Shown: positions 6,187-64,000 of the stretch, one piece after another
Numbering within the stretch: the first letter of the stretch is position 1
How the letters are laid out: each line of letters opens with the position of its first letter
IMG/VR virus record: IMGVR_UViG_3300031994_002305
Span: 165,073 to 229,072 of that record
Reading direction: 5' to 3' (one strand)
Origin: a virus
Lineage: Duplodnaviria; Heunggongvirae; Uroviricota; Caudoviricetes
DNA: 64,000 nt
Program-made: the position numbers and the translations under genes
Notes under the pieces: generated by a model
The model's input: the letters and a program-made list of their open reading frames with translations, nothing else
Database searches by the model: none
What the model was told of the DNA's origin: nothing

Positions 6187-6213
6187 TTCATAATTTAAAT
6201 ATTATATAAAAAA

Positions 6214-7953: not shown

Positions 7954-8253
7954 ATGAGCAAATTGAATTCTAATTTTATTATCGAATACGAAGTTACTAA
8001 GTTGGAGAATTTCTTTGATCTACCTGTTGGTTCTATTGTTTATGGTGCAGGTTTTAGGTCTATAGAATTTACTTATGATACTGGACATTGTAATACTTAC
8101 GACAGTATAGATGATATTAAAGATGAAGTTAAATATCTTAAAGGTCCTCACGAGTATTGCGGTGTAATAAAATATCCTTATTTAGAAGAAAACGGATTAA
8201 AAATTAGAATCAGAGAAATTAAAAGAAGTCTCGGAAAAGAAATTGCTTATTAA
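7954..8253 (+). CDS. hypothetical protein (start corrected from track 7915)
   Basis: The track start 7915 is a TTG inside the promoter cassette. The first ATG (MSKLNS...) at 7954 lies 17 nt downstream of the cassette. Confidence 0.45.
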   Translation: MSKLNSNFIIEYEVTKLENFFDLPVGSIVYGAGFRSIEFTYDTGHCNTYDSIDDIKDEVKYLKGPHEYCGVIKYPYLEENGLKIRIREIKRSLGKEIAY

Positions 8254-8266
8254 ATATTTATTAAAT

Positions 8267-8932
8267 ATGAACGCAAATAAATTTCTTACTATAACTTTCT
8301 GTTTATCAATATGTTATCAGTTATTCTGTAATAATATCGATGCAACTGAAAACAATACAAGTTATGTGAAAACTGATTCTATGTGTTCAATAAATCCGAT
8401 GTGTTCAGATATTATTGAACAAACTAAAAATATTGAACATCTGAATCATCCTAAGTCTTATCGTTTATCTAAGACAGGTAAGGATTATATTAAGTCACAT
8501 GAAACTTGTGTATTAGATGCTTATAATGATCCAGACCCAAATCGTCGTTCTGTTGGTTGGGGACATCAAATTCAACCAGGTGAATCTCTTGAACATATTA
8601 CACAAAAGAAAGCAGACGAATTATTTGAGAAAGATATTGAATGGGTTAATGATGCAATTAATAGATTACTTTCACAAACAGATAAGAGATTCATTTATAC
8701 TCAAGGGTTTATTGATGGTCTTGGTGATATGATTTATAATTGTGGTGAACGAGGTGTAACTCTTACTACATTCTGGGAACGACTTCAAAAATGTAGATAT
8801 GATAAAAATGAACCAGGATTTATTAATAAAAATGATTTAAATTATGCAATTGCTGGTGTTAAGACATCAAGAATTTCTGCTAAAGGACACATTGAACGTA
8901 GATATAATGCGCATAAAATGATGTTGAATTGA
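8267..8932 (+). CDS. T4-type lysozyme (GH24 muramidase) with N-terminal signal peptide/signal-anchor (SAR-endolysin-like)
   Basis: 'IKSHETCVLDAYNDPDPNRRSVGWGHQI' resembles T4 lysozyme '[25 protein letters not shown]' and keeps the catalytic Glu and Asp. The N-terminal 'MNANKFLTITFCLSICYQLFC' is hydrophobic. The start is moved from track TTG 8243 to ATG 8267, after the previous stop at 8253. Confidence 0.7.
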   Translation: MNANKFLTITFCLSICYQLFCNNIDATENNTSYVKTDSMCSINPMCSDIIEQTKNIEHLNHPKSYRLSKTGKDYIKSHETCVLDAYNDPDPNRRSVGWGHQIQPGESLEHITQKKADELFEKDIEWVNDAINRLLSQTDKRFIYTQGFIDGLGDMIYNCGERGVTLTTFWERLQKCRYDKNEPGFINKNDLNYAIAGVKTSRISAKGHIERRYNAHKMMLN

Positions 8933-17784: not shown

Positions 17785-17804
17785 TTTAAATAATATATAA
17801 AAAT

Positions 17805-17834
17805 ATCCTAGTATTTTGAAAAGAATGCTAGGAT
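17805..17834 (+). terminator. hairpin (atcctag ... ctaggat) embedded in promoter cassette
   Basis: 7-bp stem. The loop contains TTTGAA. It is immediately followed by TTTTCTATATTATATTG. Confidence 0.4.
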
Positions 17835-17854
17835 TTTCTATATTATATTGTAAA
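17812..17854 (+). promoter_or_regulatory. promoter cassette class A (TTTGAA - N - CTATATTATATTGTAAA)
   Basis: Conserved core. Ends 13 nt before ATG 17867. Confidence 0.5.
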
Positions 17855-28430: not shown

Positions 28431-28442
28431 TAAACATTATAA

Positions 28443-28477
28443 GGGTAAGAGGAATCTGTATAAGAATCTTCTTACCC
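28443..28477 (+). terminator. hairpin (gggtaaga ... tcttaccc) preceding promoter cassette
   Basis: 8-9-bp GC-containing stem with a 19-nt loop. Directly followed by TTTGAATATTTTTTATTTTTTT. Confidence 0.45.
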
Positions 28478-28519
28478 ATTTGAATATTTTTTATTTTTTT
28501 CTATATTATATTTTGTAAA
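28478..28519 (+). promoter_or_regulatory. promoter cassette class A (TTTGAA - 24 nt - TAtaTTTTG; core CTATATTATATTTTGTAAA)
   Basis: Conserved core. Ends about 19 nt before ATG 28539. Confidence 0.5.
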
Positions 28520-33894: not shown

Positions 33895-36800
33895 ATGGCA
33901 AATTATGTCGATAATGATGTTAATTTTACTGGTATAAAAAATCCAAAAATTCAAATTGGTGGAATAATAGGAGTTGATAAATATAGTACTGATGCAATTG
34001 GAAATATCGTACAAAATGTTCCAGTAATTAATGCTATTGACATTGATTGGAATAATGCTTCAGCTAATGGTATTGGACCTATTAAAACAACTGGTGATTT
34101 AATTAAAGCCATAGCAAATGGTGGTGGAGGAGATCCAAATTCCATACCAATTTATGATACTGATACAGTAGAAAATTTACGAACAAATAACCAATTACCT
34201 AATAAATTTATTAGTGTTGATAATTCTTTAGATTCAAACAACAGTTTAAATATGATTCATTATTTATTATCTGTTGTTAATGGATTACAACAAGAAATAT
34301 CAAAAATCAAGAATACATTTAATAAAGGTATATATTCGTATAATGGAGAAGCTACATATATGTCAACAACAGTTGCACAATATGGGGATGACGAAGAACC
34401 ATTATGGGCAATTGATGAATCAGAATTAGATGAAATTGAAGGATTTGAATTTGATTATGAAAATAATAATAATTTTGAAGATAATGGATTATTAGCTAAT
34501 CAAAAAGAAAATAGAATGTATGCTTATATTACATCTTCTTCAAATATTAATATTGTATTAAGATCAAAAACTAATAATATATTTGAATTTAATTTAACGG
34601 ATTATATTACATGTGATAAATGTAATATAATGATATTAATTAGTCGTAAGCCAGAAAATAAAGAATATCCTATTAATTTTATTTACATAGATGTTACTGA
34701 TTATGTAACAAATAAAAAACTATTATCGGGATATATTAATAATGATAAACAAATAATCATAAATGAAACTGAAGTAGGATCAAATTATTATTTTAGTAAT
34801 ATTAATTTACTTAGTGGAAATTATGAAAAGTTTAACATATATGTTCAAAATAGATCTTTTGGTAATGAAATAGTTCCAGTTACACCAGATGAAGATGAAA
34901 CTTCATATAGAGTTGCTCACATAGCAATAAGAACTGTTAAAAACGCCAATATATTAAAGAAAATAAGAGAACAACTTGTTAATGGCGAATTTATTGTTAA
35001 TGAAGAAACAGAAAAATTATATTTAAAGATAAATAATAAAATTATAAATATAGGTGCTGCAAGTGGTGGTGATGACATGAACACAGATCCTGTTAACCCA
35101 GATCCTGACACACCAGACGATACAGATAATATGGAAAATTACGAAATTATTAAAGCTCTTGAAACACAAGGAGTATTATCACTTATATTCAAGAATGCTT
35201 CAATTGTTGACATATCACAAAAATATGATCCTTCCAATATTGAATCATATAAACTTAATAGTATTGGTTCTGTAAGATTTACTCACGAAGATACTGGTAA
35301 AACATATGAATATAAAACTAATGCTTATGGTGAACTGGAAAGTAAGTTAATTGAAGATTCAACAACACTTGCTGAAAAATTACAAGGAACTACATTATTC
35401 AGTGATTTTAAATCATCAAGAGGATTCGTTGGTCAATTAGGTCATGAATTAGCACAACGTGATGGTAAATCATTATCATATAATGCAGATTATGGTTTAT
35501 ATGCTGACCGTATAAAGATTGCATCAATTTATGGACCACTTGATACTGATGTAACTTATGGATGTTCACATGCATTTATTGAATTAGAAAATACAAGTAA
35601 TATTGATTTTAATTTACAAGGATGTCAATTGCATTATATTAAAAAATCAGATGAATCTAATTATTATGTTAAATATTCATTAGATTTAACTGGTATTATT
35701 CCTGCAGGAAGTACTTATTTGATAAGAGGTAAAAAGTATATTAAAAACGATGAAGATTCAAATTGTTTTATTCATGTTAATAACTATGACCAAGAATGGT
35801 ATATTAATGGAGAATTATTAGATTTAACAATGAATAAGAATAATGGGTCATATGTTTTAATTATGTCATATCATGGAAAAATTAAAACAGCAAATTCATA
35901 TATTGATTTCTTGTCTCCTACAGATATGTTATATAAATTAGGTTTAGATATTAATGAATCTACAATTGCAGCAAATACAGATTTAGGATTATATTTAGGT
36001 ACAACAGAAAAGAAAGGAAGTTTAACAATATGTGCACCTAATGATGGTGAAACAAAAATAGGTGAAATTATTTGTCAGGATGCAAACGATAAAGCTATTA
36101 AAAATGCACCATTAGTTTATGCTAAAGGTTTTATTGATGCATTAGCATTTAATAAAACTGCATTCGGTATTACATCAGCATTTGATAGCTTATCATCTAA
36201 CACAATATGTCGTGGCACATATGTATTAGATCCAGCAAAGCAAGCTTATAACTCTTTTACAATGAGAGATAGTTCTAGAAACAGATGGGCTAAAAAGGGT
36301 AATGACTATCAATATTTAAAATTAGAAAAAAGATATATAGAATTTCCTAAGACTATAACAACTCGTGATGTTGATTATTATGCACCTAAAGCTTCTTTTG
36401 AACATAAAAATGTAATAACAGATAAAACACATTTTGATAAGAAAAAACCTAATGCAGTAACAGTATCTTATGGTGCAAATGTTTATACAACTAGATGTTT
36501 TAACTGGTTATCAGCCGCTAATTTAGATGAATATGTTTGGATATATGATTCTAATGGAAATCAATTAGGAGTATTTGAATCATATAAGAAAGTAGATACT
36601 GCTATAACACAATCTAATTCATTCCCACGTAGAAAAGAATTTTCAGTAGATGTTAATAATATTGTCTATTGTGATTATAGAATTAATGATGTTATAGATA
36701 GAAGTAATAAAAACAAAGATGTAACATACAAAAAGTATGCAACAGCTCCACGTGCATGTGGTATATTCGCAGGATCAAATGATTTCTTTGTATCTCATAA

Positions 36801-38739
36801 ATGTATTATAGATATTGTTGAAAATCCTGTTAATGAAGAAACAACATACTCATATATTGTCGGTCAAGCTGATAAGAATAAAAAACCTTTAGAAGGATAT
36901 TGTTCTGAAAGAAGATACTTTACATTATATCCTGATACATATACACCAGTTATATATCAAATAACAGACCAGCAAGGATTCCATTGGATTGAATATCAAG
37001 TTTGGGCTGCTGCTGCTGAAAGTTTAAATCAAAAGATTATTTATGAAATGGATGCGGCACGTGATGGAAATGGACATGGTATTATGCCTATCATTATTAA
37101 TACTGGTGATGCTACACAATCAGGTTCTCGTATTAATGAATGGTTAGATTATTTTATTGCTGGTGATTGCTTATTTAATCATTTTGAACAAAATAATATT
37201 GTTGGTAATAATGACTTAAATGGTACTGATATTCAGGCATTAGGTACGGGTGATGACCCAGGTAAATCAAATGCTTATTATTATTACTTATTTAATTGTA
37301 ATGAAGTCAATAATTTCTTTGGTGGTGATGTAAATCCACATTATCCAATTGTAAATAATACTTATGTACCATCATTATATTATTTAGACACTAATAATTT
37401 TAGATTAGTAATGTGTAATTCTGAATTAACTCCTATTAACTGTCGTGATTGGTTTAATTTAAGATGTACTCCATATGAAGGTGATAATACAGAATATACA
37501 ATTAATATTTATACAGGATTTAATTTAGTTGGTAGTAAAACAGATAGTCCTGAAAAATATGTGGCTGATGCATTTGGATTTACACCTATTTATACATTAT
37601 TATGGCATGCATTTAATAAATTAGAAAATGGTAATCGTAAATGCATAGCAGCTTGTCATGAAATGCCATTTACAGTTGTAACAAATGCATGTTGTTCAGA
37701 ACCAAATCAATTAGAAAGATTTAGAAGTATGTCTGATGCTGCATCTCCAGGTAAATTAATTGGTAGTCATATGAATCAAATGGAGCCAACAGAAAATGGA
37801 GCAGGTGTTTATTGGTTTAGTAGATTACTTGAAAGTATGGGAGTTAAATTATGTATTGGTGGTCATAAACATACATACGCAATATCATACCCAGTTAGAG
37901 AATATTATAAATATTATAAAAATGGTACTTTAGTTAGTAGTTTAACAGATGGTCCAATGCAAATGGATGAAACATTGGCATTCGAAGAACGTGATTCAAT
38001 AAACGATTATAAAGTTCTTTGGAAATGGAAAGCTTCAGCTCCAACAAATAATCGTAATGTAGAATACCCTTGGTGTGAAACTGCATTAAAGGATAGTAAG
38101 GAAAAACTTTATTTAGATGGTGATAAGAATACATCTGAAACAACAGGTATGATTAACTGGTCTAAATTACCAATAACATATATGGAAAATACAATAAATT
38201 CAGATCTTTTACCAATTAATAAATTTTATCCTTCTAAACCATTATACGTAGATGACGGATATCGTGATAGTGCAGTTACTTATATAATGTGTCAAGCAAC
38301 TGGATATAAATTAACATCAAATAAAGAATTACCTACTCCTAACCAAAAATTCTCAAGAATTATACCAGTAACAAGTAATGGTTCTGATGGAACAGATACG
38401 CCAGATAATAACCAAAAATTCCCAATGTATATTAAATATGTTGTAGATAATTTAGGACAATGCAATGTATATTTAGCAAGAGCAAAAAATATATTTAATG
38501 GTAAGTATAAATTTACACAAATTGCTTATGGAACTAAAGATATTGAATGGACATATTTAATTGATAAAGCTCAATATGTTAAGAGTTCTGATGAATCAAA
38601 ATTGGATGTAGTTTCAAAATATAATGATTCAACAACACAAGCAGAAATAGATGAAGTTAAACTAAGTGCTGAAACTTACGATAACTATGGATTATGGTTA
38701 AAATCTGAAAAGAAAATGATTCCAACAATTAATATTTAA
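33895..38739 (+). CDS. giant virion structural protein (1614 aa), putative tail fibre/baseplate-associated
   Basis: Very long N/Y/T-rich ORF. It is terminated by a strong hairpin at 38762 and sits next to a 2830-aa ORF and the capsid/tail module. No enzymatic motif found. Confidence 0.55.
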   Translation: MANYVDNDVNFTGIKNPKIQIGGIIGVDKYSTDAIGNIVQNVPVINAIDIDWNNASANGIGPIKTTGDLIKAIANGGGGDPNSIPIYDTDTVENLRTNNQLPNKFISVDNSLDSNNSLNMIHYLLSVVNGLQQEISKIKNTFNKGIYSYNGEATYMSTTVAQYGDDEEPLWAIDESELDEIEGFEFDYENNNNFEDNGLLANQKENRMYAYITSSSNINIVLRSKTNNIFEFNLTDYITCDKCNIMILISRKPENKEYPINFIYIDVTDYVTNKKLLSGYINNDKQIIINETEVGSNYYFSNINLLSGNYEKFNIYVQNRSFGNEIVPVTPDEDETSYRVAHIAIRTVKNANILKKIREQLVNGEFIVNEETEKLYLKINNKIINIGAASGGDDMNTDPVNPDPDTPDDTDNMENYEIIKALETQGVLSLIFKNASIVDISQKYDPSNIESYKLNSIGSVRFTHEDTGKTYEYKTNAYGELESKLIEDSTTLAEKLQGTTLFSDFKSSRGFVGQLGHELAQRDGKSLSYNADYGLYADRIKIASIYGPLDTDVTYGCSHAFIELENTSNIDFNLQGCQLHYIKKSDESNYYVKYSLDLTGIIPAGSTYLIRGKKYIKNDEDSNCFIHVNNYDQEWYINGELLDLTMNKNNGSYVLIMSYHGKIKTANSYIDFLSPTDMLYKLGLDINESTIAANTDLGLYLGTTEKKGSLTICAPNDGETKIGEIICQDANDKAIKNAPLVYAKGFIDALAFNKTAFGITSAFDSLSSNTICRGTYVLDPAKQAYNSFTMRDSSRNRWAKKGNDYQYLKLEKRYIEFPKTITTRDVDYYAPKASFEHKNVITDKTHFDKKKPNAVTVSYGANVYTTRCFNWLSAANLDEYVWIYDSNGNQLGVFESYKKVDTAITQSNSFPRRKEFSVDVNNIVYCDYRINDVIDRSNKNKDVTYKKYATAPRACGIFAGSNDFFVSHKCIIDIVENPVNEETTYSYIVGQADKNKKPLEGYCSERRYFTLYPDTYTPVIYQITDQQGFHWIEYQVWAAAAESLNQKIIYEMDAARDGNGHGIMPIIINTGDATQSGSRINEWLDYFIAGDCLFNHFEQNNIVGNNDLNGTDIQALGTGDDPGKSNAYYYYLFNCNEVNNFFGGDVNPHYPIVNNTYVPSLYYLDTNNFRLVMCNSELTPINCRDWFNLRCTPYEGDNTEYTINIYTGFNLVGSKTDSPEKYVADAFGFTPIYTLLWHAFNKLENGNRKCIAACHEMPFTVVTNACCSEPNQLERFRSMSDAASPGKLIGSHMNQMEPTENGAGVYWFSRLLESMGVKLCIGGHKHTYAISYPVREYYKYYKNGTLVSSLTDGPMQMDETLAFEERDSINDYKVLWKWKASAPTNNRNVEYPWCETALKDSKEKLYLDGDKNTSETTGMINWSKLPITYMENTINSDLLPINKFYPSKPLYVDDGYRDSAVTYIMCQATGYKLTSNKELPTPNQKFSRIIPVTSNGSDGTDTPDNNQKFPMYIKYVVDNLGQCNVYLARAKNIFNGKYKFTQIAYGTKDIEWTYLIDKAQYVKSSDESKLDVVSKYNDSTTQAEIDEVKLSAETYDNYGLWLKSEKKMIPTINI

Positions 38740-38833: not shown

Positions 38834-41800
38834 ATGAAATTACATAATAACGAAAATGATTCATTTATAATAACATCAAATGACATATTAGTAAATGGTG
38901 ATAAATCTGATGTTTTAACTAACGTTATTAATAAGCAAGAAGATAAGTTAACAAGTTTAGAACGAAATATCAAATGGCTTTATAAATATGGAGGTACAGG
39001 ATCAAAAGGTTCTGGATCATCTAATGGTGTTTCGTTTAGTGTAGATGCAAATGTATTATTTGGTAATATAATTATTCAAAAATCTATTAATCAAAAATTA
39101 ATATTATCAAATAGTAATAAAAAATATGAAACATTATCAATAAGTTTAAATAAAACAAACATATTGAATATTTATCAAGCTAGAATTACTGGTACTGGAT
39201 TTTCACAAAGTAAATGGTATGATTTAACACAAGATAATGATTATGGATTATCATTCAATGTACCTGTTGATGATACTGGAACAATAAAAATAGAAATTAA
39301 AGGTACAAGTACATTAACTGGTGATAACGATAATGCAACATATTTATTTACATATATCAAAAATCCTTATGTATTTAATTTATCATTAATAGATAATAAT
39401 GATAAAAACATATTAGATGGAGATAATTTATATGTTAATGAAGCAATAGAAAAGGGAGTAAACTTATTTATTGATTATAACATAGTTTCATCAAAACAAA
39501 TATCATATGAAATAACATGTGACGAAACTATGTTAACTAATTATGAAGGAATAATTAATGATAGTGAACATGGTGTAGGTTTAGGTAATTTGTCTATTCC
39601 TTTTAATTCATCATTTATATCAAATGACAATAATTATGGATCTCATACAATTAACATTAAATTTAAAATAGATCCTGATGAGTCATTAGGAATATCAAAT
39701 GGACAGATTATTACTAAGAATATATCATTTACATATATTCCTAATAATCAAATATTCTTTAAAATAGAATCAACAAATAATAAAGCAAAAATATATAAAT
39801 ACTCAGAAACAAATTATAATAATGCAATTATTCAATTTAATTTATATAAAAGTTATTATGAGTATTTTAAAATTCTTGAAAATGAACAAGAATTAGACCC
39901 AGTTATTCGTGAAGGTTTGATTAATACATTAGTAGATGAATCATTAAGACCTTCAATAACAGATAATCAATTAAAAGATGTAATTGAAAATAAATTAAAC
40001 GAAATTGAATCAGAACTTTATATATTTAATGTAGGATCTTTACAATTATATTTACAAGCATATTTAGGATCAAATACATTAAATACGGTAGATGTTTCAT
40101 ATATTTTAGATGATGGTGAAAATATAATTGATAATGAATTATTAAGTTCATTACAATATAGAAAACGTCAAATGATTAATATACCAGTTCAAGAAGAAGG
40201 TGTATATAAATTATGTATTTATTCGAAGAATCAAACTGAGCAACAACGTATTTATTACTATTTTGCTGCATTTGATAAAAATAGTGGAATTAACTGGTAT
40301 AATGCTGATGTTGAATTTAATGAAATTGATTTATTCTTTAAAGAAGGAAAAATAGGAACACATCATGAAACTAATTTAAGTCTTAATTGTTTAAATACAA
40401 TTAAAAATTATGAAAGTGTTCAAAAGATTCAAAAATATGCTAATGGAGAACCTTCACAATTATTTGATATTAGTAATGAATTAAATTTATTAGCTCAACC
40501 AGATTGTGACATAATGTTATCATTTGGTATTCAATATTCATATATTAATAGTGATAATGTAAAGTTAATGTCAATTTTAACAAATAACAATAATAGCTCA
40601 TTAAATCTTGACATATATCAAAATAGAATTAATGAATATAATTCATCAAATACATTAGCAAAAATATTCATACCAAAGGAACATAATTATGCTCCTTCAA
40701 ATAATGAAAACTATCATTTATTAACATTATATAAAAGATATGTTTATGAAACAAATTCACCTTATTATGAAATAATAATTTATATTGATGGATGTCCTGA
40801 AGCAGCATTTAAAAACTTTGTTAAAGATTCATCATGTTGGTCTTCAGTATATTTAAATAACTCAAATTTTTCATTGAACTTTTTTGAGTTAGCATATTTT
40901 CAACATAATAAAAATAGTTTAAAAAGATTTGACAAAAATGAAACATCAGGAACAGTTACACAAAATAAAGTAACATATCTTGATGATATAGCAATATCTG
41001 AATATTATTATAAGTATATAAGTACACATAAATCTTTAGGTAATATTATTTCATTACTTGCTAATCTTCGTAATTTCAAAGAAACAGATTATGGAATGAT
41101 AGAAGTTGCTTCAAGAAATGATATTGATTCAATTGCAAATGGTATTGATATTCCAGTTTTACTTTTAGAATATACAGATCAATCTGATAATGAATTTGTT
41201 AATTGGTTTACTAAATCATATAAAGAAACCGAATTAACAAAAGATAAAAAGAAATTAGATTACATATATTATTCAAGTGGTTTAAATAAACTTTCACAAA
41301 TTGATTTACCCGATGAATTAGCTGGTTCATATTGGTATGCTGCATTGCAAGGTTCTTCTACAGGTGAATTATTTGATAAAAACTTAACATTAGGTATTAA
41401 TAACCAAACACCTGGTCGTATGGGTATATTTACACCTAATTTCTATGACGTTAATGAAACTTTATTTAACAGTAATAATTTAACAGAAGAAGAACAAACA
41501 ATTGTATCAAAGGCAAAAAATTCATTCTTACCAGAAACTGCATATACATTAAAGGCAGACGTTGTTGACTCTTCACATAGTAACAATACTGCTGTTGGTG
41601 CATTCGTTAATGCAAATACAACACAATTTAATATATTATTTGATGGTGGTAATACAAATAAAGGTAATAATAAATATGTTAATTATATTAAAAACTGTTT
41701 GTTAGGTTTCCCTGTATTAGTATTTGCTAATGTTAACAGAAATGGTAAATCAACATATTATTTTCTTGGTATATACAATTTCAACTTAGGTCGTGATTCA

Positions 41801-44800
41801 TATTTTAATATGGGTTATTATAGTCCACGTATTTTACAAGAACAGAATCAAATTTCATCTGCATTAAATAATGCATCAGGTAAAGATTTCATTGTAACAT
41901 ATGTAGAATTTACTAACTTAGATATGAAAACATTACCTGTTGATGATGGTGTTATTGTTGCAGAAATTCAAGGTGGTAAAGAATATTTCGATTTTTCACA
42001 ATATCATTCAACAATGTTATTACCACAGGATGTACAACAAGGCACCGATAATGGATGTATGTTTGGTGATTTTGTTCCAAAATATGATCCATCTAAACAA
42101 TCAAATGCAGATTTACGTATAAGATATCATATACCTAGATTAGTTGAAGCAATTTCTAAAGCAGGTGGTTATTTATTTGATAATGTATTACATAAACATT
42201 TAGGTGAATACAAATATGGATATAATAAGTATATTGATAGAGGATATGGTTCATCTATATTTGATTCAGCAAACCAAGTTCCAAATTATAAATTACAATA
42301 TGTAAGAGCACCTCAAGAAAGTGATACTGATTTACAATATTTAATTCATAATTTCCAAAAAGATGAACGTGGTCAAATTATTTTAAATTCAAATGGACAA
42401 CCATCAATTGACCCATCATATTATGCTGATGATTATGCAGTTGGACGTTTATTAGATACACATATTGATGAAGGTTTTGATCCTTATCAACGTGGTAATG
42501 ATCCTATATTAGATTATACAAGTGCAACTGAATATTATACTGCATGTATGGGATTTGGTCTTGTTGACTCAGTAATGAAAAACCTTAATGTTAAATCATG
42601 GAATGCAACGTATGTTGAAGGTGCGGATAATTATAAAAATGGTAAATGGTATGTAGCATTTTATGATATGGATACATCATTTGGTAGAGATAATGGTGGT
42701 GCAAAAACTTCTTATTTTGCATTCTCAGATTATTGGAAAACAGGAAAAACTACTGAATTAGAAGAACCAACAATATATAGAGATTTCTATCCAATGTCAG
42801 ATCCAGAAAATCCTAATGTCGTTGGACAATCAATGGCAGAATCTGGATTTGATATACCTTCATCATATTTATTTGCTGTTGCTAAATATGCCCATTTATT
42901 AAATGATGAAAAATCTGATTCATTATTAGTACCAAAAGGTTCAATACCTCACAATATATGGGCTAGATGGAGATGTATCTCAAACAATATAGGAGATATA
43001 TCAGGTCCTGGAACAGGTGAATTAAGATCTGCAGATTATTTCATACAAAAATATTTCATTAGAAATTTAGATAATATCCCTGAACAAATTTGGGCATTAA
43101 ACTATAGACTTAAATATTTAAAACGTATTTCACCAGATTCAACAAATAAATATAACTATACATATAATACTGATGAAAATGGCTCATTTGAAAACCTTAA
43201 TTACATTCCATTCCATGGAAAAGGCATTAATGAGTTACATGAATGGTTAGGTGGTCGTTTACATATATTAGATTCATATTTTAATTTAGAAGGTAATGAT
43301 AAATTAAATATTAAGTATCTTGAATATACTGAAAATGAATCTAATGAAAATAATCCTAAATTTACACCTATAATAAGATTAGATAGTGTACAAGGTTATA
43401 AATATAATGATATTGATACTCCTAATGCAGATAGTAATGGTAATTATAAATGGTTATCATCATCTTATAATGATAAAATTCCAGATATAACTCCTGATGT
43501 ATTAGGTTCAAATAAAGATATTGAAATATTAAAGGATATATTTTCAATAAATGGAAATGGTGCACGTTATTCGCAACCTATTGATATTTATATAAAATCA
43601 CAAGAATTTTCACCATTTAACATTACAACAGCTATGGGTGAAAAATATAAATATTTATTGGAAGATCCTGACACCGAATATCACATATCATATAAACCTA
43701 GAGGATTAGTTATCACAAAATTTGGTGGTTCGACTCTTTGGACATATATTAGAAATCTTAATACAGTAATTAATGAAAATACATTAACATTAAATACTGA
43801 AAACTTAGATCAAATTGTATTAACAAAAGGTAAATGTAGTACTTATAATATATCAGCGATGAAATCATTAAAAATTGTAAGTATTATTAAGGATTTATAT
43901 GATAATGATTCACAGTTTACTGGAACTTTAACATTTGCATTAGATGCGAATAATACTGACCCATATCCTGATTTAACAATAATTGAATTAATAAGAACAG
44001 AAATAACATTAACATGTAATGGTGTTGGTGTATCAGTAATTAATTTATCTAATACACAATCAACCGACACAAAAATTATAAACTGTAAAAACTTAGAATC
44101 AGTTAACTTATCAGGATTTACTGCTCCTTCTTTGGATATTATGCCAGGATGGTCAAATGATATGGAAATTAATTTATCAAAAGTTAATAAGATAAAAATT
44201 AGTCCTAAAGATAAAACAGCTAACGAACGTAAAATTTCTATTAAAAATGACTTAAAATTAACAACAGTCATATTGGAAGATTTTACTCATATTTCTTTAG
44301 CATATTGTCCTAACTTATATAATATTTGCATATTAAATCCTGAACATGTAGAATCTTTAGAGATAATAAAATGTAATACTGATTCAAAAGCTAATCATAA
44401 TTTACATATTTATTTTAATGAATTAGATGAATCATCAGAAAATGATTCAACAACAATTGACTTAAAACAATTAACAAATATTCGTTCATTTAAATTTAAT
44501 GGTACAGGTGGATTCAATACATTAGATGCATCAGAATCAGATGGTGAACAAATTACTATTAATGGAAATACATATAACTGTTTAAAATTATATGGAGATG
44601 CCTTCTCAGGAACATCTTTAGAAAGAATAATAACTAAACCTAATGTATATTTATATATTAATAGTGATAATATCAATGGAACTACTGGAACATTTAATGA
44701 TTCAAATTATGGATCATATCCTAATAAAATGATTATTGGTAAAAATGTTAAAAAATTAGATTCATTATTTAAACATGATTTGGGTGGTACTTTAACTTCA

Positions 44801-47326
44801 TCACCTCATATAGATAGTGGTTTTGTTGCTGATTTTATTAATTGTAATGAAGATTTGGTAATATTTGAAAATATTGATAATATTGTTTCATTAAATGGAT
44901 TATTCTATGGACAAACACGTGTCGCTAATAGTAAAACTAATCATCCATTTACATTAAATAAATTTAAGAATGTAAATGATATTAGCTATTTATTCTTCGG
45001 TACAAGTATATTTACATATAATAAAGATATATTTGGTACTGATGATAACTATTGTGGTATGAATGTTATACAGAACAATGGAGAATTTAAGTTAGATAAC
45101 TTTATACCTTCTGGTTCAAATATTGACGTAAATTTATTTGATTATTACATCAATAATATTAAATGTTTAATTTCTGATAATGATTATATCCAAGTTAGAT
45201 TAAATATTTATAATGATGGTGATGTTGTACAAATTAAAAATTTATTTAGTAATTTAAATTATGATACAAATATTTTAGAATCATTTGAAGGATTTGTTAT
45301 TAATGATATGGATGGTGTTGATTATGCCGACTTGTTATATGACCATACAACTAATAAATTTAAATTCCCTAAGTTAAAATCAATTAAAAACTCATTTAAT
45401 AACTTAAATAAGTATAGTATTAATTTTAATAGAATTGGATTGTATGAATATGATATGTCAAAATTAACATTATATAATTCATTTAATTTCTCTAACGAAA
45501 ATATCGAAAAAATGAACATTACGCAAATAATTAATTTTGATACATTTGCAAATAATTCACTATTACCTTGGCATGATAGTATTTATTCATTAAATGGTGC
45601 AAAGGAAATATATGAATCTGATTTATTAATATTATTAAAGAAGTTAAACACTAAAAAATGCATTACATTAAATAACTTATTTAAAAATACAAATATTATT
45701 ATTGATGATGATAAAGTAAATAAAAATGAATTAATATTACATTCATCAGATATAGTTGAACCTTATATATTTAGAGCATGTAACGGATTATTTAAAAATG
45801 CAAAATTAGTAGATAGAAATAATGTAGAATATGGCATAGAAATTACATCTAATACTTTAAGTAAGTTTACTAATGTTGAAACATGGACAGAAGCATTTAT
45901 GGGATGTACATTACATAAGAATTTGCCATTAAATATGTTTAATTTAAAAACGGGATTAGGTGATTATAAAATTGACTATTATACAGAAAAACATAAAAAC
46001 TTATCATTAATGTTTGCTGATGTCAAATTAGATTCAAATGAATCTTGGTTTAATTATAATTGGACTCCTGAAGATTATACAAAATATAATAATGGCATAG
46101 AATTAAATGGATCATATAGAAAAAATATTACTACATTAGAAGGTACAGTAATTTCAAATTATGAATGTAAAGATAATTATGTACAAAATGGCATTACTGT
46201 TTATGGAGAACATATTGTTAAAAACTTAATATTACCTTGGGATATATTTTATGGTTGTACATCAAATTGTAATATTGATGGCTTCATTGCAAATTCTGAA
46301 TTTGAAGGAATATTACCTACAAATCTATTCCCTAAAAATACTAAGTTATATAATTTAAGTTTTTCAAATACATTTAAAGATGTATTAGTAATTCCTAATT
46401 TTGTAAATGATATAATTATTGAATATGTAAATAAATCACTTGCAAATACTGTATGTTATGTTAAGTGTCCAGGATATGTATTTATACCTGAATATTTCAC
46501 AAATTCTACTGATTTAACATGTTCATTTAACTTTAAAATGTTATTACCTAACAGTGAATCTTTAGATAGAGTTAATTCTGATAAAATACATAATATTCCT
46601 AATAATGGTATTAATAAGACAATAGATAACGTTGATTCAATTGAATTGTATTTTGTATTACAAGATAATTCAGTTAGCTTTGGTAATTTAACATCTATTA
46701 AAGACTTTTTACCTTATGATAATGTTATTACATTATATGATGAACTTAATCAAACAACAATTGAAAAATCATTGCATACTTTAGATACTAGTATTAGAGC
46801 AAATCAAGATAATATATTTAATGCAAGAACTGATTATGGAATTCATTATTATATGTATTTAAATAAAGAATTATTATCAACATCAGATTCTTCATATCCT
46901 TGGGTTGAAGTAATTATTAAAGATTCTACTGATAATGATGTTACAATATATGAAGCATTTAATAAAGATGAAACTGATACAGGATTACCAATTGTTAATA
47001 ATACAAAATTATTATATGATTCAATATTTAATGATGATATAATATCATTTACTTATGGAAATATCATTACACGTGGTTTTAATCTATATAATGTTCAACC
47101 AATTAGTGGATCTAGTCCATTTATTAATATAAGTGCTATATGGTCTGATTTTGGAAAGAATATTATATTACCTTTAAATGAAAGAGGTGCAGGAGTATAT
47201 TATGATAATGTATTTAATTTAGGTAGCAATTTAGTTAAGCATATTAGCATAGATAATATCGACCGTAAACAACAAACATCATTAGATAACTATGCTGAAC
47301 ATAGATTAATTGATATTGATTATTAA
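38834..47326 (+). CDS. giant protein (2830 aa), putative virion structural protein (fibre/baseplate/ejected protein)
   Basis: Uninterrupted 8.5-kb ORF, N/Y/S/T-rich, followed by the terminator at 47341. No catalytic motif was found; the canonical two-barrel RNAP DxDGD box is absent. Confidence 0.55.
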   Translation: MKLHNNENDSFIITSNDILVNGDKSDVLTNVINKQEDKLTSLERNIKWLYKYGGTGSKGSGSSNGVSFSVDANVLFGNIIIQKSINQKLILSNSNKKYETLSISLNKTNILNIYQARITGTGFSQSKWYDLTQDNDYGLSFNVPVDDTGTIKIEIKGTSTLTGDNDNATYLFTYIKNPYVFNLSLIDNNDKNILDGDNLYVNEAIEKGVNLFIDYNIVSSKQISYEITCDETMLTNYEGIINDSEHGVGLGNLSIPFNSSFISNDNNYGSHTINIKFKIDPDESLGISNGQIITKNISFTYIPNNQIFFKIESTNNKAKIYKYSETNYNNAIIQFNLYKSYYEYFKILENEQELDPVIREGLINTLVDESLRPSITDNQLKDVIENKLNEIESELYIFNVGSLQLYLQAYLGSNTLNTVDVSYILDDGENIIDNELLSSLQYRKRQMINIPVQEEGVYKLCIYSKNQTEQQRIYYYFAAFDKNSGINWYNADVEFNEIDLFFKEGKIGTHHETNLSLNCLNTIKNYESVQKIQKYANGEPSQLFDISNELNLLAQPDCDIMLSFGIQYSYINSDNVKLMSILTNNNNSSLNLDIYQNRINEYNSSNTLAKIFIPKEHNYAPSNNENYHLLTLYKRYVYETNSPYYEIIIYIDGCPEAAFKNFVKDSSCWSSVYLNNSNFSLNFFELAYFQHNKNSLKRFDKNETSGTVTQNKVTYLDDIAISEYYYKYISTHKSLGNIISLLANLRNFKETDYGMIEVASRNDIDSIANGIDIPVLLLEYTDQSDNEFVNWFTKSYKETELTKDKKKLDYIYYSSGLNKLSQIDLPDELAGSYWYAALQGSSTGELFDKNLTLGINNQTPGRMGIFTPNFYDVNETLFNSNNLTEEEQTIVSKAKNSFLPETAYTLKADVVDSSHSNNTAVGAFVNANTTQFNILFDGGNTNKGNNKYVNYIKNCLLGFPVLVFANVNRNGKSTYYFLGIYNFNLGRDSYFNMGYYSPRILQEQNQISSALNNASGKDFIVTYVEFTNLDMKTLPVDDGVIVAEIQGGKEYFDFSQYHSTMLLPQDVQQGTDNGCMFGDFVPKYDPSKQSNADLRIRYHIPRLVEAISKAGGYLFDNVLHKHLGEYKYGYNKYIDRGYGSSIFDSANQVPNYKLQYVRAPQESDTDLQYLIHNFQKDERGQIILNSNGQPSIDPSYYADDYAVGRLLDTHIDEGFDPYQRGNDPILDYTSATEYYTACMGFGLVDSVMKNLNVKSWNATYVEGADNYKNGKWYVAFYDMDTSFGRDNGGAKTSYFAFSDYWKTGKTTELEEPTIYRDFYPMSDPENPNVVGQSMAESGFDIPSSYLFAVAKYAHLLNDEKSDSLLVPKGSIPHNIWARWRCISNNIGDISGPGTGELRSADYFIQKYFIRNLDNIPEQIWALNYRLKYLKRISPDSTNKYNYTYNTDENGSFENLNYIPFHGKGINELHEWLGGRLHILDSYFNLEGNDKLNIKYLEYTENESNENNPKFTPIIRLDSVQGYKYNDIDTPNADSNGNYKWLSSSYNDKIPDITPDVLGSNKDIEILKDIFSINGNGARYSQPIDIYIKSQEFSPFNITTAMGEKYKYLLEDPDTEYHISYKPRGLVITKFGGSTLWTYIRNLNTVINENTLTLNTENLDQIVLTKGKCSTYNISAMKSLKIVSIIKDLYDNDSQFTGTLTFALDANNTDPYPDLTIIELIRTEITLTCNGVGVSVINLSNTQSTDTKIINCKNLESVNLSGFTAPSLDIMPGWSNDMEINLSKVNKIKISPKDKTANERKISIKNDLKLTTVILEDFTHISLAYCPNLYNICILNPEHVESLEIIKCNTDSKANHNLHIYFNELDESSENDSTTIDLKQLTNIRSFKFNGTGGFNTLDASESDGEQITINGNTYNCLKLYGDAFSGTSLERIITKPNVYLYINSDNINGTTGTFNDSNYGSYPNKMIIGKNVKKLDSLFKHDLGGTLTSSPHIDSGFVADFINCNEDLVIFENIDNIVSLNGLFYGQTRVANSKTNHPFTLNKFKNVNDISYLFFGTSIFTYNKDIFGTDDNYCGMNVIQNNGEFKLDNFIPSGSNIDVNLFDYYINNIKCLISDNDYIQVRLNIYNDGDVVQIKNLFSNLNYDTNILESFEGFVINDMDGVDYADLLYDHTTNKFKFPKLKSIKNSFNNLNKYSINFNRIGLYEYDMSKLTLYNSFNFSNENIEKMNITQIINFDTFANNSLLPWHDSIYSLNGAKEIYESDLLILLKKLNTKKCITLNNLFKNTNIIIDDDKVNKNELILHSSDIVEPYIFRACNGLFKNAKLVDRNNVEYGIEITSNTLSKFTNVETWTEAFMGCTLHKNLPLNMFNLKTGLGDYKIDYYTEKHKNLSLMFADVKLDSNESWFNYNWTPEDYTKYNNGIELNGSYRKNITTLEGTVISNYECKDNYVQNGITVYGEHIVKNLILPWDIFYGCTSNCNIDGFIANSEFEGILPTNLFPKNTKLYNLSFSNTFKDVLVIPNFVNDIIIEYVNKSLANTVCYVKCPGYVFIPEYFTNSTDLTCSFNFKMLLPNSESLDRVNSDKIHNIPNNGINKTIDNVDSIELYFVLQDNSVSFGNLTSIKDFLPYDNVITLYDELNQTTIEKSLHTLDTSIRANQDNIFNARTDYGIHYYMYLNKELLSTSDSSYPWVEVIIKDSTDNDVTIYEAFNKDETDTGLPIVNNTKLLYDSIFNDDIISFTYGNIITRGFNLYNVQPISGSSPFINISAIWSDFGKNIILPLNERGAGVYYDNVFNLGSNLVKHISIDNIDRKQQTSLDNYAEHRLIDIDY

Positions 47327-47406: not shown

Positions 47407-47479
47407 TTAACATAATAACAGTAAGTTATTTATTTTTATTTGATATTTATTTATAACAAAAATATTGGAATACAATAAT

Positions 47480-49093
47480 ATGACAAATAAACGTTGCTTG
47501 ATCTATGAAACATTGGGTGAAGTTAAACAATTACAAGTTTCTGAAGCAGCAGCGCCTAAAGGTATGATGAGACTTGAAGGTGTATTTGGCGTATGTGGTA
47601 TTAAGAATCAAAATAATCGTGTTTATGATAAAGAAAACTACCGTCAAATGGTAGAATCTTTACAAGCAGTTATTAAAGAATCTGGTTGTCCTGGTGAATT
47701 GGAACATCCAAATTCAATGAATATCAATCTTGAAAATGTTTCACACAAGATTGAAGATATTCAAATGAATGAAGATGGAACTATCACAGGTACAATTCTT
47801 TTATTAAATACCCCTAAAGGTCAAATAGCTCAAGCCATTGTAGAAGGTGGTCTTCCACTTTATATTTCATCTCGTGGTGCTGGTACTATTACTAATGAAG
47901 GTAAAGTTACTTTATCTACAATCAAAACTTATGACTTAGTTGGTACACCTGGTTTCAGTCAAGCCAAATTAACTCTTAAGCAAAATCAAACTTTAGAATG
48001 TTTAAATGAATCTGCTGAAGAAGGTAATGTTATTTATGCTATTGTTGAAGGTGAAGAATCTAAAACAGATGATAACGAAGATCCTAAAAAAGAAGATTCT
48101 AAAAAAGAAGACGATAACAAAAATAAAGATAATGGTAAAGTAGATATGAAAGAACTTAAAGAAGCTATCGATAAGCTTACTGAGAAGGTTACTTCTCTTG
48201 AGGCTGAACTTCATGTAGCTCAAGAATCTTTAAATGAAGCAAAATCTATCAAACCAACTAATTATGATGCTATTCAACAATGGGTAACTGAAGAATTCTG
48301 GCCTGCATATAAGAATCAGATCCAAATTCCTGAAGGTGTATCTATGGAAGATATTGAAACAATGGTTGATGCTAAATTAAGTGAATCAATTAATACAATA
48401 GCTGAAGGTGTTGAAAGTTGGGTTGTTGAAGAATTTGCCCCAGAAGTACAGAACTGGGTAGTTGAAGAATTTGCTCCAGAAGTACAGAATTGGGTAGTTG
48501 AAGAATTCGCTCCAGAAGTTCAGAACTGGGTAGTTGAAGAATTTGCTCCAGAAGTTCAAAATTGGATTGTTGAAGAATATTCACCAGAAGTACAAGGTTG
48601 GATTACTGAAGAATTTGCACCAGTTGTTGAAGGTTGGATTAATGAAGAATTCGCTCCTGAACACAAACAACAAATTGAAGAAGCTGTAAATGCTAATGTA
48701 TCTGCATTTATGGAATCACAAAAGGCTGGTCGTCTTGATGAAATTGATAGTTTATTAGAATCAATTGCTCAAGATGGTAATAATGATGTTAATAAGATTG
48801 TTGCTGAACAACAAAAAGAAAACAAGTACAAAGGAATTTATGTAGTAGAAAGCATGCCTGCTGAATATACTGCATCTTGGGAATTACTTGATGAAGCTCG
48901 TCAACAAGAAATTATTCGCACTTCTAAGATGTATGACTTCACAAAAGAAGGAGTACTTGAATCATTCTGGGCTAATGTAGATTTTAATAAGACTACAAAA
49001 ACTGAAAGAATCAACGAAAATAATAACCCAGTTGATAACTATCAAATGAATATTGTTAACAGAATGAGATCACTTCGTGGTTTATATGCTTAA
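47480..49093 (+). CDS. prohead protease (HK97/T4 gp21-like) fused to acidic scaffold-like domain with 13-aa tandem repeats
   Basis: The N-terminal approx. 170 aa ('RLEGVFGVCGIKNQNNRVYDKENY ... GELEHP') resemble HK97-family prohead protease motifs. The remainder is an acidic coiled coil with 7 x 'W(V/I)VEEFAPEVQN'. It lies directly upstream of the MCP. The start is moved from track TTG 47465 to ATG 47480. Confidence 0.45.
   Translation: MTNKRCLIYETLGEVKQLQVSEAAAPKGMMRLEGVFGVCGIKNQNNRVYDKENYRQMVESLQAVIKESGCPGELEHPNSMNINLENVSHKIEDIQMNEDGTITGTILLLNTPKGQIAQAIVEGGLPLYISSRGAGTITNEGKVTLSTIKTYDLVGTPGFSQAKLTLKQNQTLECLNESAEEGNVIYAIVEGEESKTDDNEDPKKEDSKKEDDNKNKDNGKVDMKELKEAIDKLTEKVTSLEAELHVAQESLNEAKSIKPTNYDAIQQWVTEEFWPAYKNQIQIPEGVSMEDIETMVDAKLSESINTIAEGVESWVVEEFAPEVQNWVVEEFAPEVQNWVVEEFAPEVQNWVVEEFAPEVQNWIVEEYSPEVQGWITEEFAPVVEGWINEEFAPEHKQQIEEAVNANVSAFMESQKAGRLDEIDSLLESIAQDGNNDVNKIVAEQQKENKYKGIYVVESMPAEYTASWELLDEARQQEIIRTSKMYDFTKEGVLESFWANVDFNKTTKTERINENNNPVDNYQMNIVNRMRSLRGLYA
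48419..48691 (+). repeat. 7 tandem copies of a 39-bp repeat encoding W(V/I)xEE(F/Y)(A/S)PEVQ(N/G)
   Basis: Copies start at 48419, 48458, 48497, 48536, 48575, 48614 and 48653. The first four are nearly identical at the DNA level. Confidence 0.8.
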
Positions 49094-61559: not shown

Positions 61560-62069
61560 TTATTTATTTTCTTCTGACTTAGGATTTTTAATATTATCCA
61601 TTGCTTGCATAACAGCCTGATGTTGAGAAGCAATAAAATAAGTCTTATCAGTTGCACCTACATAATCATTATGAAGTGGTTCAAAATACTTATTGATTGC
61701 TACAACAGCAGCCCACTCATCATAACCAGTAAATTGCATTTGACCTAATGTACGAAGTATTGCATCTAATTGTGCAAATGGGATCTTCTTTACTTTCTTT
61801 TCAGGATTCCAAAAATCATAAAGACCAACAAGACCTAATGTATATTGCCATTGAACTGTTTGCTTATTCAATAACATTCGAATACCTTCAGCTACTGTCT
61901 TGTAATTATCTTTAGGTAAATCAAATTCAAGTTTAGATACTTTTTGATCATTTTCATCTGCTTGTGCAATTAATTCTGATTCAATCTTTTCTAATTCTTC
62001 AAGTGTTTTTCCTTTAAGAGATTCAGTGTATTCAGCTAATTGCTTTTGTCTTTCCTCTATATTAACCAT
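61560..62069 (-). CDS. hypothetical protein
   Basis: ORF, 169 aa. Confidence 0.45.
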   Translation of the reverse strand: MVNIEERQKQLAEYTESLKGKTLEELEKIESELIAQADENDQKVSKLEFDLPKDNYKTVAEGIRMLLNKQTVQWQYTLGLVGLYDFWNPEKKVKKIPFAQLDAILRTLGQMQFTGYDEWAAVVAINKYFEPLHNDYVGATDKTYFIASQHQAVMQAMDNIKNPKSEENK

Positions 62070-62087
62070 TAATCTTATAAGATATAT

Positions 62088-62606
62088 TTATATAAAAAGT
62101 AATATTACTATTGCTATAATTGCATATATTAATCCATGCAATAGCATTTTCTTTAATTCTTTAGTAAATTCTTTACGTGATACAATATCAAATATTAATA
62201 AATAATTATCTGCATTTTTTGGACCAACATGTTTAAATTGCAAATCTATAAAATGATAAAGGTTTTCAATTTTAAATACTTCACCAATTATAGTTAATTG
62301 CTTATAAGTCCAATGCTTAACATATTCATTATTATTTGTATTTTCATCATCAAATTCTATTATGGTTTTAGTGATATCAAATCTTCCTTCTTCATTAATA
62401 TTTGGATTGATAACACCATATAAACGTCCTATCCAGTCTTTACGGATGTCAACATTAAGATATTCTTTTAAAACTAACTTAAATGCATCACTATATAAAG
62501 TATCAGAAATATATTCATAATCCTTTAGATAGTTATATCCATATTTAATTGTATTATAAACTTTACCTATAAAAGTTTTGAAAAATAAGTTTCTTAAGAA
62601 TTTCAA
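62088..62606 (-). CDS. tail-anchored membrane protein (C-terminal TM 'LLHGLIYAIIAIVILLFI')
   Basis: ORF of 172 aa, first gene of the leftward operon. Confidence 0.45.
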   Translation of the reverse strand: MKFLRNLFFKTFIGKVYNTIKYGYNYLKDYEYISDTLYSDAFKLVLKEYLNVDIRKDWIGRLYGVINPNINEEGRFDITKTIIEFDDENTNNNEYVKHWTYKQLTIIGEVFKIENLYHFIDLQFKHVGPKNADNYLLIFDIVSRKEFTKELKKMLLHGLIYAIIAIVILLFI

Positions 62607-62677
62607 AATTCATTTATAATATATTTGATTTAAAAATAGTAAAAGAAAGTTAATAAGTTCAATATAATTAATATAAA

Positions 62678-62719
62678 ATTTGAAATATTTATATTTATTT
62701 CTATATTATATTTGTATTA
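62678..62719 (+). promoter_or_regulatory. promoter cassette class A (TTTGAA - 24 nt - CTATATTATATTTGTATTAATC) in divergent intergenic region
   Basis: Conserved core. Downstream lies only a 4-codon ORF, then about 190 nt of leader before the ATG at 62915. Confidence 0.45.
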
Positions 62720-62914
62720 ATCAAACAGGAATAAATATGTATGTTACTTAAAGTTCATTAATGTAAATAATCACTGATATTATTATTTATTTTTAATAAA
62801 TCTATTTAGGATAATTGAGACATTAACATTATTTAACGGAAATAATTTTTATATATAAAATATTTTGGTTAATTTTGTACTGTCAAAGTTAATAAAAAAT
62901 TAATTAAATAAATT

Positions 62915-64000
62915 ATGAAAAAAATTACAGAAGGAGCAAGTAAAGTAAATTTTGAAGTACAAAAAAATACAATTAACTACATCAGTGAAGCAGATCTTAA
63001 AAAGTATTTGGACGTAGCTGGTAATTTCTTGTCTGAAGAAACAAAGGAATTAGTTCAATGGCTTATTGTGAATAATAAGACATACATTTCTGATTTGTCA
63101 ACTGATGATGATGAAAATGCTCTTGCAGGATTTTATAAAGCAGGAGTTCCTAAGAAGGAAAACCTTAAAGAGCTTTATAAGTTAATGGGTGTAATCATTA
63201 AGAGTGGTCGTACTCTTGAAATTCCTGTTTTCCAAACAAAGGATCAATTTGAAAAAATTATTAATAAACAAATTGCTCCAGATAAAATATTTTTAGATTT
63301 GGATTCTAAAAAAGGTCGTGAAGCTGTAACTAAAAAATATGAACCACTTGCACATCGTGTTGCTAGACAATGGCTAGGTAAGATTAATCTTCCTTATGAC
63401 GATATTTTAAGTTGTTGTTATGAAGGTCTTACTTATGCAATGAATACTTATGGTAAAAAGAATAAGAAATCTAAGGCAGATGATGAAGCAGTAAAAAGTT
63501 ATACATTCGGCCAATATGCTGCATATTGTATGCTTAACCACATTAGAGGTTATGGTGTTTATTATTCTCATATCGTAAAAATTCCTAATGCTGAACAAAA
63601 GAAAGAACGTGAGGAAAAAGGTCATAATACAAAAACACTTTCAGTATCTGGTGATAAAGTAGTAGGTCACAATGATGAAGGCAATAAAACAATATTTGAT
63701 TTTATTAGTTCATCAAATGATGCTGAATCTGGTGTTAATGCTGAAGATCGTAAAAAATTGTATGATGATATTTTGAAGATTCTTTTGGGAGAATTTGATA
63801 AAAAAATTATTGATATCTGGTGTAGTTATTGGGGTGTATATGATCATAAGAAATTAATGAATAAAGATATTGCTAAAAAATATAATGTAGCAAATTCTAA
63901 CATTACATATTATTGTCAAAAGGTAAATAATTTTATTCGTAAAAATAAAAAGATTCTTGGATTATTTAATGAACTTTATGAACTACTTAAAGAATCAATT
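62915..64000 (+). CDS. sigma-70-family RNA polymerase sigma factor-like protein (3'-partial, runs off window)
   Basis: Open from ATG 62915 to the window end (362 codons, no stop). 'DDILSCCYEGLTYAMNTYG ... YTFGQYAAYCMLNHIRGYGVYYSHIVKIPNA' resembles sigma region 2 ('DLIQEGNIGLMKAVDKF ... YKFSTYATWWIRQAITR ... RTIRIPVH'). 'KLMNKDIAKKYNVANSNITYYCQKVNNFIRKNKK' resembles the region 4.2 HTH. Confidence 0.5.
   Translation, partial: MKKITEGASKVNFEVQKNTINYISEADLKKYLDVAGNFLSEETKELVQWLIVNNKTYISDLSTDDDENALAGFYKAGVPKKENLKELYKLMGVIIKSGRTLEIPVFQTKDQFEKIINKQIAPDKIFLDLDSKKGREAVTKKYEPLAHRVARQWLGKINLPYDDILSCCYEGLTYAMNTYGKKNKKSKADDEAVKSYTFGQYAAYCMLNHIRGYGVYYSHIVKIPNAEQKKEREEKGHNTKTLSVSGDKVVGHNDEGNKTIFDFISSSNDAESGVNAEDRKKLYDDILKILLGEFDKKIIDIWCSYWGVYDHKKLMNKDIAKKYNVANSNITYYCQKVNNFIRKNKKILGLFNELYELLKESI

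Follow-up and report, generated by a model that had tools for sequence, protein, structure and literature searches.

The phage sigma factors SPO1 gp28 and phiEco32 gp36 consist of a sigma2 and a sigma4 domain with no extra domain (~200-220 amino acids, aa), derive from unrelated phages, and replace the host sigma factor on the host core RNA polymerase (RNAP), switching the promoter class. T4 gp55, at ~185 aa, is a sigma2-like domain only and has no sigma4. Here, we describe a gene for a sigma-70-family factor (62915-64000) at the end of a 64,000-nucleotide (nt) stretch of DNA (positions 165,073 to 229,072 of IMG/VR record IMGVR_UViG_3300031994_002305, hereafter the window) from a ~376 kb, 26% GC myovirus with a distant relation to the Lak, PTm1 and PAU phages. 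In our judgement, the balance tips slightly towards this gene encoding a working sigma-70 initiation factor of an RNAP-less giant myovirus, with a two-block promoter class of the phage, class A, as its most likely target.

The phage belongs to group 2.2 of Iyer et al. (PMC7824862), which combines a T4-type core with minimal-type and RpoD-like sigma factors and a gp33 homologue and has no polymerase of its own; the minimal sigma factor of the group was reported as gp55-like. According to a 2026 review, RNAP-less jumbo phages carry sigma factors (PMC13282480), and sigma factors are also mentioned in the Lak megaphage paper (PMC6784885). As the group carries such factors as a rule, the presence of one here was to be expected and is unsurprising (PMC7824862, PMC13282480, PMC6784885). 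The premise of the initial annotation, that large T4-like phages typically redirect host RNAP with small non-sigma factors plus gp55, is by the same literature too narrow and outdated. The RpoD-like sigma factors of RNAP-less group 2 jumbo phages (PMC7824862) and of Lak (PMC6784885) come from the same broad giant-myovirus lineage and share the presumed recruitment of the host core. The family described here differs from them in having no orthologue in deposited phage genomes, no sigma3 and a unique N-terminal domain. The protein is not of the gp55 type; it may work in a way analogous to SPO1 gp28 and phiEco32 gp36, although no sequence match to either was obtained. What sets the present protein apart is its private N-terminal domain, together with a promoter class that is specific to the lineage and cleanly associated with this sigma factor.

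Identity of the gene product

62915..64000, + strand: sigma factor gene, of whose 386 codons the window covers the first 362; the final 24 and the stop lie outside

The frame opens with an ATG at 62915-62917 and stays stop-free for 362 codons, up to position 64000, where the window ends. The complete protein (P0001, 386 aa) was found in a protein database; it is 100% identical across the window portion and occurs on the 376 kb contig and on ENA contig k141_359463 (locus L001, 10001-11161); the window therefore falls short of the final 24 residues only. The protein retains a region 2.1/2.2 core-binding motif. Two short reverse-strand open reading frames (ORFs) within the conserved sigma gene (63407-63625 and 63713-63847) were taken as spurious.

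Sequence profiles and fold agree with the initial annotation and confirm that the phage ORF really encodes a sigma-70-family factor, in which both region 2 and the helix-turn-helix (HTH) of region 4.2 are recognisable. In an alignment of 44 family relatives with 45-87% identity (A1), 43 members match the sigma-70 superfamily model TIGR02937 (best 1.2e-14) and 16 match Pfam Sigma70_r2 (best 1.5e-7). Members are also matched by the models SigF (36/44), RpoD_Cterm (26/44) and Sig70_bacteroi1 (7/44), as well as by RpoS and SigK. PHROG 351, 'RNA polymerase sigma factor', matches the window protein itself (E 5.3e-13, aa 105-336). Nearly all matches of the A1 profile among PDB sequences are sigma factors, and so are all top 50 Foldseek matches in the PDB. 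A match to Sigma70_r2 was thus obtained within the family, but the Pfam scan of the window protein alone gave no significant match. Weighing against the assignment, its match to TIGR02937, a single stretch covering model positions 3-162 of 165, reaches only 23.7 bits and stays under the curated cutoff of 42.9. Membership in the sigma-70 family rests on family-level and fold evidence, since the single sequence misses the curated threshold; every other computable feature of membership was found.

The low scores of the single sequence would also be seen if the resemblance to sigma factors were due to chance. Alternatively, the gene could be bacterial and the contig chimeric or mis-binned; a scan of 185,579 species genomes did find relatives on two short contigs, and only there, both binned as Romboutsia. 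We consider either reading extremely improbable. The profile and fold evidence is consistent and domain-specific, and the gene is syntenic in at least 10 phage contigs of up to 465 kb, where it lies beside structural genes and, at a divergent junction, always opens an array of small ORFs that runs rightward. The two Romboutsia-binned relatives (L013, CALFLM010000083.1; L014, CALESE010000062.1; 40% identity) lie on 5-7 kb contigs of 'uncultured Romboutsia' metagenome-assembled genomes. As these contigs have 29% GC and no Shine-Dalgarno sites, they are probably phage contigs mis-binned through their low GC or base composition.

The family comprises ~250 clusters at 90% identity that are mostly unlabelled in metagenomes, although in IMG some of them already bear the label 'RNA polymerase sigma factor (sigma-70 family)'; relatives of the gene were found on contigs of 376-465 kb. 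No relative was found by tblastn and megablast in 50,697 deposited phage genomes, where the sole tblastn match at E up to 10 was the sigma factor of Xanthomonas phage XaC1 (E 0.7). A local hidden Markov model search of LR756500 and PTm1 for the sigma family yielded nothing past one weak match, and the PTm1 annotation lists no sigma factor.

Domain architecture

The protein is laid out as a lineage-specific N-terminal domain, sigma2, a region-3.2-like linker, sigma4 and an acidic tail. Of the full two-domain sigma-70 homologue proposed in the initial annotation, sigma2 and sigma4 stand, but sigma3 is absent and an extra, unrelated domain of 134 aa precedes them. The parts are as follows, all on the + strand:

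aa 1-134; 62915..63316: all-helical N-terminal domain, lineage-specific, fused ahead of this sigma only
63062..63136: LIVNNxTYISDLSTDDDENALAGFY, the most conserved motif of the protein, with invariant or near-invariant columns and an acidic patch
aa 135-235; 63317..63619: sigma2 domain
63338-63454: regions 2.1-2.2 with the core-binding motif, within sigma2
aa 181-193; 63455-63493: 13-aa basic/acidic insert separating regions 2.2 and 2.3
63494-63550: regions 2.3-2.4 (YTFGQYAAY), within sigma2
aa 196-210; 63500-63544: Y-T-F-G-Q-Y-A-A-Y-C-M-L-N-H-I, the region 2 motif seen in the initial annotation
aa 221-226; 63575-63592: VKIPNA, placed on the RIPVH box
aa 236-274: short linker, preceded by one short helix at 225-235 and disordered, with low pLDDT (predicted local distance difference test) at 240-273
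63641..63706: SVSGDKVVG...KTIFDFI, a motif resembling region 3.2 that aligns to VSLETPIGEEDDSHLGDFI, the end motif of this region in SigA
aa 275-345; 63737..63949: sigma4 domain, with region 4.1 at 63743-63835
aa 316-344; 63860-63946: region 4.2 HTH, within sigma4
aa 346-386; 63950..64000 in the window: C-terminal helix and acidic tail, running past the window end

The A1 profile aligns aa 135-230 to SigA regions 2.1-2.4 of the B. subtilis, T. aquaticus and M. tuberculosis structures (E-values 1.7e-5 to 1e-4), and a sigma2 fold is present. In the profile alignment, the core-binding motif DLIQEGNxGLxKAVEKF matches DDILSCCYEGLTYAMNTY, DDILSCCYEGLTYAMNTYG in region 2.2 aligns to DLIQEGNMGLMKAVEKFD, and the melting motif YTFGQYAAY stands against YKFSTYATW of SigA. 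The region 2.3 aromatics Y196, F198, Y201 and Y204 occupy the sigma70 positions Y425, F427, Y430 and W433. Invariant in A1 are G155, K156, A175, F198 and A202, while Q200 and A203 are conserved in at least 90%. The pairing of VKIPNA with the RIPVH box, proposed from the letters alone in the initial annotation, is exactly what the A1 profile gives, with the family consensus 'vRIP' on the SigA '(I)RIPVH' box. Only ~20 residues, with one short helix and no sigma3 domain, separate the RIP box (aa 222-224) from the 3.2-like motif (aa 243). The sigma4 HTH is present as well; in its region 4.2 recognition helix, S328 is invariant in A1 and Y332, Y333 and K336 are conserved in at least 90%.

Among known sigma classes, the extracytoplasmic function (ECF, group 4) factors share the two-domain sigma2-sigma4 arrangement with a short linker. 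The present family is nonetheless nearer to group 3 and group 1 by its model matches, as models of these groups match more of its members than ECF models such as Sig70_bacteroi1 do, and its RIP box and region-3.2-like motif are typical of groups 1-3. From group 1 (RpoD-type) factors it differs by having no match to region 1.1/1.2 and no sigma3.

The N-terminal domain is compact and helical (pLDDT 82 when modelled alone) and resembles no sigma region in sequence or fold; a sequence-profile search of the PDB gave nothing above noise (E-values of 0.4 and upwards). Its profile found 87 clusters among 1.84 billion representative proteins, and all full-length clusters but one marginal match carry the sigma part too. 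This makes the domain an N-terminal extension that is private to the sigma family and obligatory in it. A role as region-1.1 analogue is unsupported, as its net charge is nil (21 acidic and 21 basic residues). Purely by inference, it probably makes a lineage-specific protein contact, for instance with the host polymerase, the host sigma factor or a phage partner.

The unusual N-terminal domain and the acidic C-terminal tail could also serve functions other than promoter recognition. The protein could be a decoy that shuts off host genes by occupying the host core. It could also steer the polymerase towards host genes, a role that has been proposed for phage sigma factors of the sporulation type. 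In line with this, and speaking against a working initiation factor, the sigma70 residues R584, E585 and R588 that contact the -35 element are all replaced, by N, S and T in a by-eye alignment, a replacement that says nothing about the target sequence. We nevertheless consider a sigma-like non-initiator very unlikely. The melting aromatics of region 2.3 are strongly conserved, as are the recognition-helix residues of region 4.2, which argues for retained DNA binding, and the highly conserved phage-specific promoters of the lineage need a reader.

Promoter classes and the proposed target

The two highly conserved promoter-like motif classes noted in the initial annotation are both real and strongly enriched. 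Class A reads TTGAA-N16/17-CTATATT and is extended in this phage to TTTGAA-N16-CTATATTATATTTGTA. The window holds six exact copies against 0.18 expected (6236, 7899, 17816, 28050, 28480 and 62680), all intergenic and on the + strand, and 224 kb from nine sigma-bearing phages hold 20 against 0.8 expected. No other recurrent two-block motif was found. Apart from the copy of the sigma gene, the window copies lie 20-50 nt ahead of a start codon. The enrichment is absent in relatives without this sigma (LR756500, 3 against 1.3 expected; PTm1, 1 against 0.5), a co-occurrence that is weakened by its reliance on two comparison genomes only, whose hosts may simply differ.

Class B, TTATTTTTATWTAAA (given also as TTATTTTTAT[AT]TAAA), spans ~15 nt in a single block, lacks a conserved -35 partner and is likened to the T4 late box TATAAATA. 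It stands directly ahead of the genes for the protease (47388), capsid protein (49121) and sheath (51106), and also at 54286, 14775 and other sites; the nine sigma-bearing phages hold 8 exact copies against ~0 expected. Since class A consists of two blocks at rigid spacing, it suits a sigma2-sigma4 protein with a short linker, whereas class B, as a single block without -35 partner, better suits a gp55-type factor. We put the chance that the sigma factor reads class A promoters at about even.

Shine-Dalgarno-like sites precede one of the 63 window genes and ~4% of the genes in relatives (loci L003-L014), and their scarcity is a Bacteroidota pattern (PMC6847099). This near absence suggests a Bacteroidota-like host, which agrees with the hosts of related phages. 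The canonical Bacteroidota promoter TTTG-N19-21-TAHHTTTG, however, shows no enrichment, whether in the window (7 against 5.3 expected), upstream of genes (11 sense against 18 antisense) or in the nine sigma-bearing phages (12 against 7.4 expected). The nine phages are not enriched in TTGACA/TATAAT-type sites either (18 against 19 expected). In PTm1, a relative with a known Bacteroidota host, the Bacteroidota promoter is enriched (34 against 8.8 expected).

The stretch between the sigma gene and its divergent neighbour contains several promoter-like elements:

62679..62716, + strand: class-A element TTTGAA-N16-CTATATTATATTTGTA, 208 nt upstream of the sigma ATG
62633..62662, - strand: TTGAAC-N17-CTATTTT, a leftward variant of class A that serves the divergent cluster and lies 27 nt ahead of its 172-aa gene (62606..62088)
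62787..62800, + strand: TTATTTTTAATAAA, a variant of class B within the sigma leader, its position conserved in L003, L008 and L012
62843..62859, + strand: second class-B-like box TAATTTTTATATATAAA in the sigma leader
62870..62877, + strand: TAATTTTG, a perfect Bacteroidota -7 box TAnnTTTG (PMC6847099), 38 nt before the ATG

The class-A cassette from which the initial annotation had the gene expressed does exist in this region and recurs at the orthologues, but its distance of 208 nt is well beyond the 20-50 nt of the other copies, and class-B-like boxes lie in between. Class A precedes the sigma gene in ~8 of 10 loci; boxes were found in L003, L004-L006, L009, L010, L011 and L012, and degenerate ones in L007 and L008. 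A class-B-type box is conserved in the sigma leader at 6 of 10 loci, and the ACTATTTTTAA part of the leftward variant is conserved in L003 and L008. The box TAATTTTG may be a host-dependent start promoter, for which the evidence is weak, as it is unconserved beyond close relatives. No Rfam family and no terminator were predicted in the 5' leader of the gene.

A number of these observations weigh against class A being the target of the phage sigma factor and would fit a classical cascade, in which the host primary sigma factor reads class A early, and the phage factor then takes the core and reads class B or TTATTTTTAATAAA boxes, or an unseen middle class. Class A agrees with the generic sigma-70 consensus at 10 of 12 positions, and its geometry is Bacteroidota-like (TTTG-N19-TAnnTT), so a host sigma factor could read it. 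In most lineages, the sigma gene itself lies behind class A and heads early-type arrays of small ORFs with more class-A copies. Class A dominates these early-looking arrays, and no other candidate early promoter class was found; in SPO1 or T4, such a pattern marks early promoters that are read by the host, and both SPO1 gp28 and phiEco32 gp36 follow the cascade scheme. A phage without virion polymerase moreover needs host-readable promoters, and class A is the only recurrent two-block candidate. Finally, the class-B-type box in the sigma leader fits autoregulation by a sigma factor that reads class B.

We regard this cascade as possible, but well short of even. Its second step would assign to a sigma2-sigma4 protein the single block of class B, and the phage group is reported with a gp55-like minimal sigma and gp33 (PMC7824862), to which such a box is better suited. 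This counter-argument is tempered by the gp55-type factor being assumed from the group, with this genome covered by 64 kb plus flanks. The first step would sit less well with a Bacteroidota host, as the Flavobacterium -7 box has near-invariant T-6 and G-5 (PMC6847099), neither of which is found in class A, and PTm1 uses canonical host promoters instead.

In the favoured reading, with class A as the target, the phage sigma factor would bind the host core RNAP through contacts of sigma2 with the beta-prime coiled coil and of sigma4 with the beta flap, and direct the enzyme to phage promoters. These would be the class A two-block promoters, including the copy of its own gene. The host holoenzyme could start the first round, through weak firing of class A or the TAATTTTG box at 62870, and the phage factor would then amplify class A transcription in a positive feedback loop. 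Class A would serve the sigma gene, the small-gene arrays, the helicase/MazG cluster and scattered genes within the structural module, and class B would be left to a gp55-type late factor. Such a mixed scheme of host start and subsequent amplification fits all observations. A stricter version, in which sigma factor and class A form an orthogonal pair, is unlikely in our view. There, the N-terminal domain would help to capture the host core or to displace the host sigma factor, and only this sigma would read class A efficiently.

Of the genes behind class-A promoters, none but those for a lysozyme (8243-8932), a helicase and a MazG-like protein could be assigned to a family by Pfam and PHROG. 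The class-A promoter at 7899 precedes a small ORF followed by the lysozyme gene (Phage_lysozyme, E 5e-12), within the structural region. Three class-A promoters are part of terminator-promoter cassettes (6205-6263, 17800-17844 and 28440-28507). Hairpins formed by ATCCAGAAA...TTTCTGGAT and by ATCCTAG...CTAGGAT enclose the class-A -35 box, and a GC-rich hairpin at 28445-28477 stops right at it. Folding of the upstream terminator and use of the class-A promoter might thus be coupled.

Genomic neighbourhood

Just upstream of the sigma gene, the window encodes the tail sheath, major capsid protein and prohead protease; genes for a head-closure protein, the helicase and the MazG-like protein also lie in the window. 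The capsid protein is 30-38% identical to those of the uncultured 462 kb phage LR756500, Tenacibaculum phages pT24 and PTm1, Sphingomonas phage PAU and the Prevotella Lak megaphages, which are its closest matches. No tRNA genes were found in the window. Three giant ORFs of 1399, 1614 and 2830 aa (18-4217, 33895-38739 and 38834-47326) lie in or beside the structural module, the first in a stretch of 20% GC. They had no PHROG match and thus reveal no hidden phage polymerase, the absence of which they leave unproven. The prohead protease/scaffold ORF (47465-49093) contains about six tandem 36-nt repeats at 48365-48661, which encode VQNWVVEEFAPE.

Diverging from the sigma gene on the - strand, two genes of 172 and 169 aa (62088-62606 and 61560-62069) have no family match. 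The pair is kept beside the sigma gene in all long contigs examined (L009-L012), and its members are candidate functional partners. No recognised anti-sigma domain was found in the small ORFs adjacent to the sigma gene, which were searched without depth. Past the window end, a strong hairpin terminator AAGGAGATTG...CAATCTCCTTTTT follows the sigma gene (L001 11162-11268), and beyond it come CTATATATTG, a TTATTTTTAATAAA box (L001 11238) and the next small gene.

Many small ORFs share nearly the same N-terminus, MK(D/S/H/N)I(K/T)EYI(L/I)ES, and similar DNA around the start codon (repeat families D4, D9, D10 and D13). They lie at 19480, 20458, 25333, 25824 and 26173 in the window and at 11269, 12004, 12365, 12744 and 13758 in L001. 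The shared N-terminus may mark a paralogous family or a constraint on translation starts without Shine-Dalgarno sites.

Implications

That giant phages without their own polymerase bring their own sigma factor was known, and the present finding extends this picture without changing it. It gives a firm annotation to a gene family that is mostly unlabelled in metagenomes. The family is now paired with two sharply defined promoter classes in a giant-phage lineage that has no cultivated member. Should sigma factor and class A form an orthogonal pair after all, most non-late transcription of the phage would be independent of the host primary sigma factor, and the host, probably a member of the Bacteroidota, would have promoters of a different look. 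With such a pair of sigma factor and promoter, the temporal programme of these phages becomes open to in vitro tests that need no phage culture, and the pair could serve as an orthogonal sigma-promoter part in hosts such as Bacteroidota.

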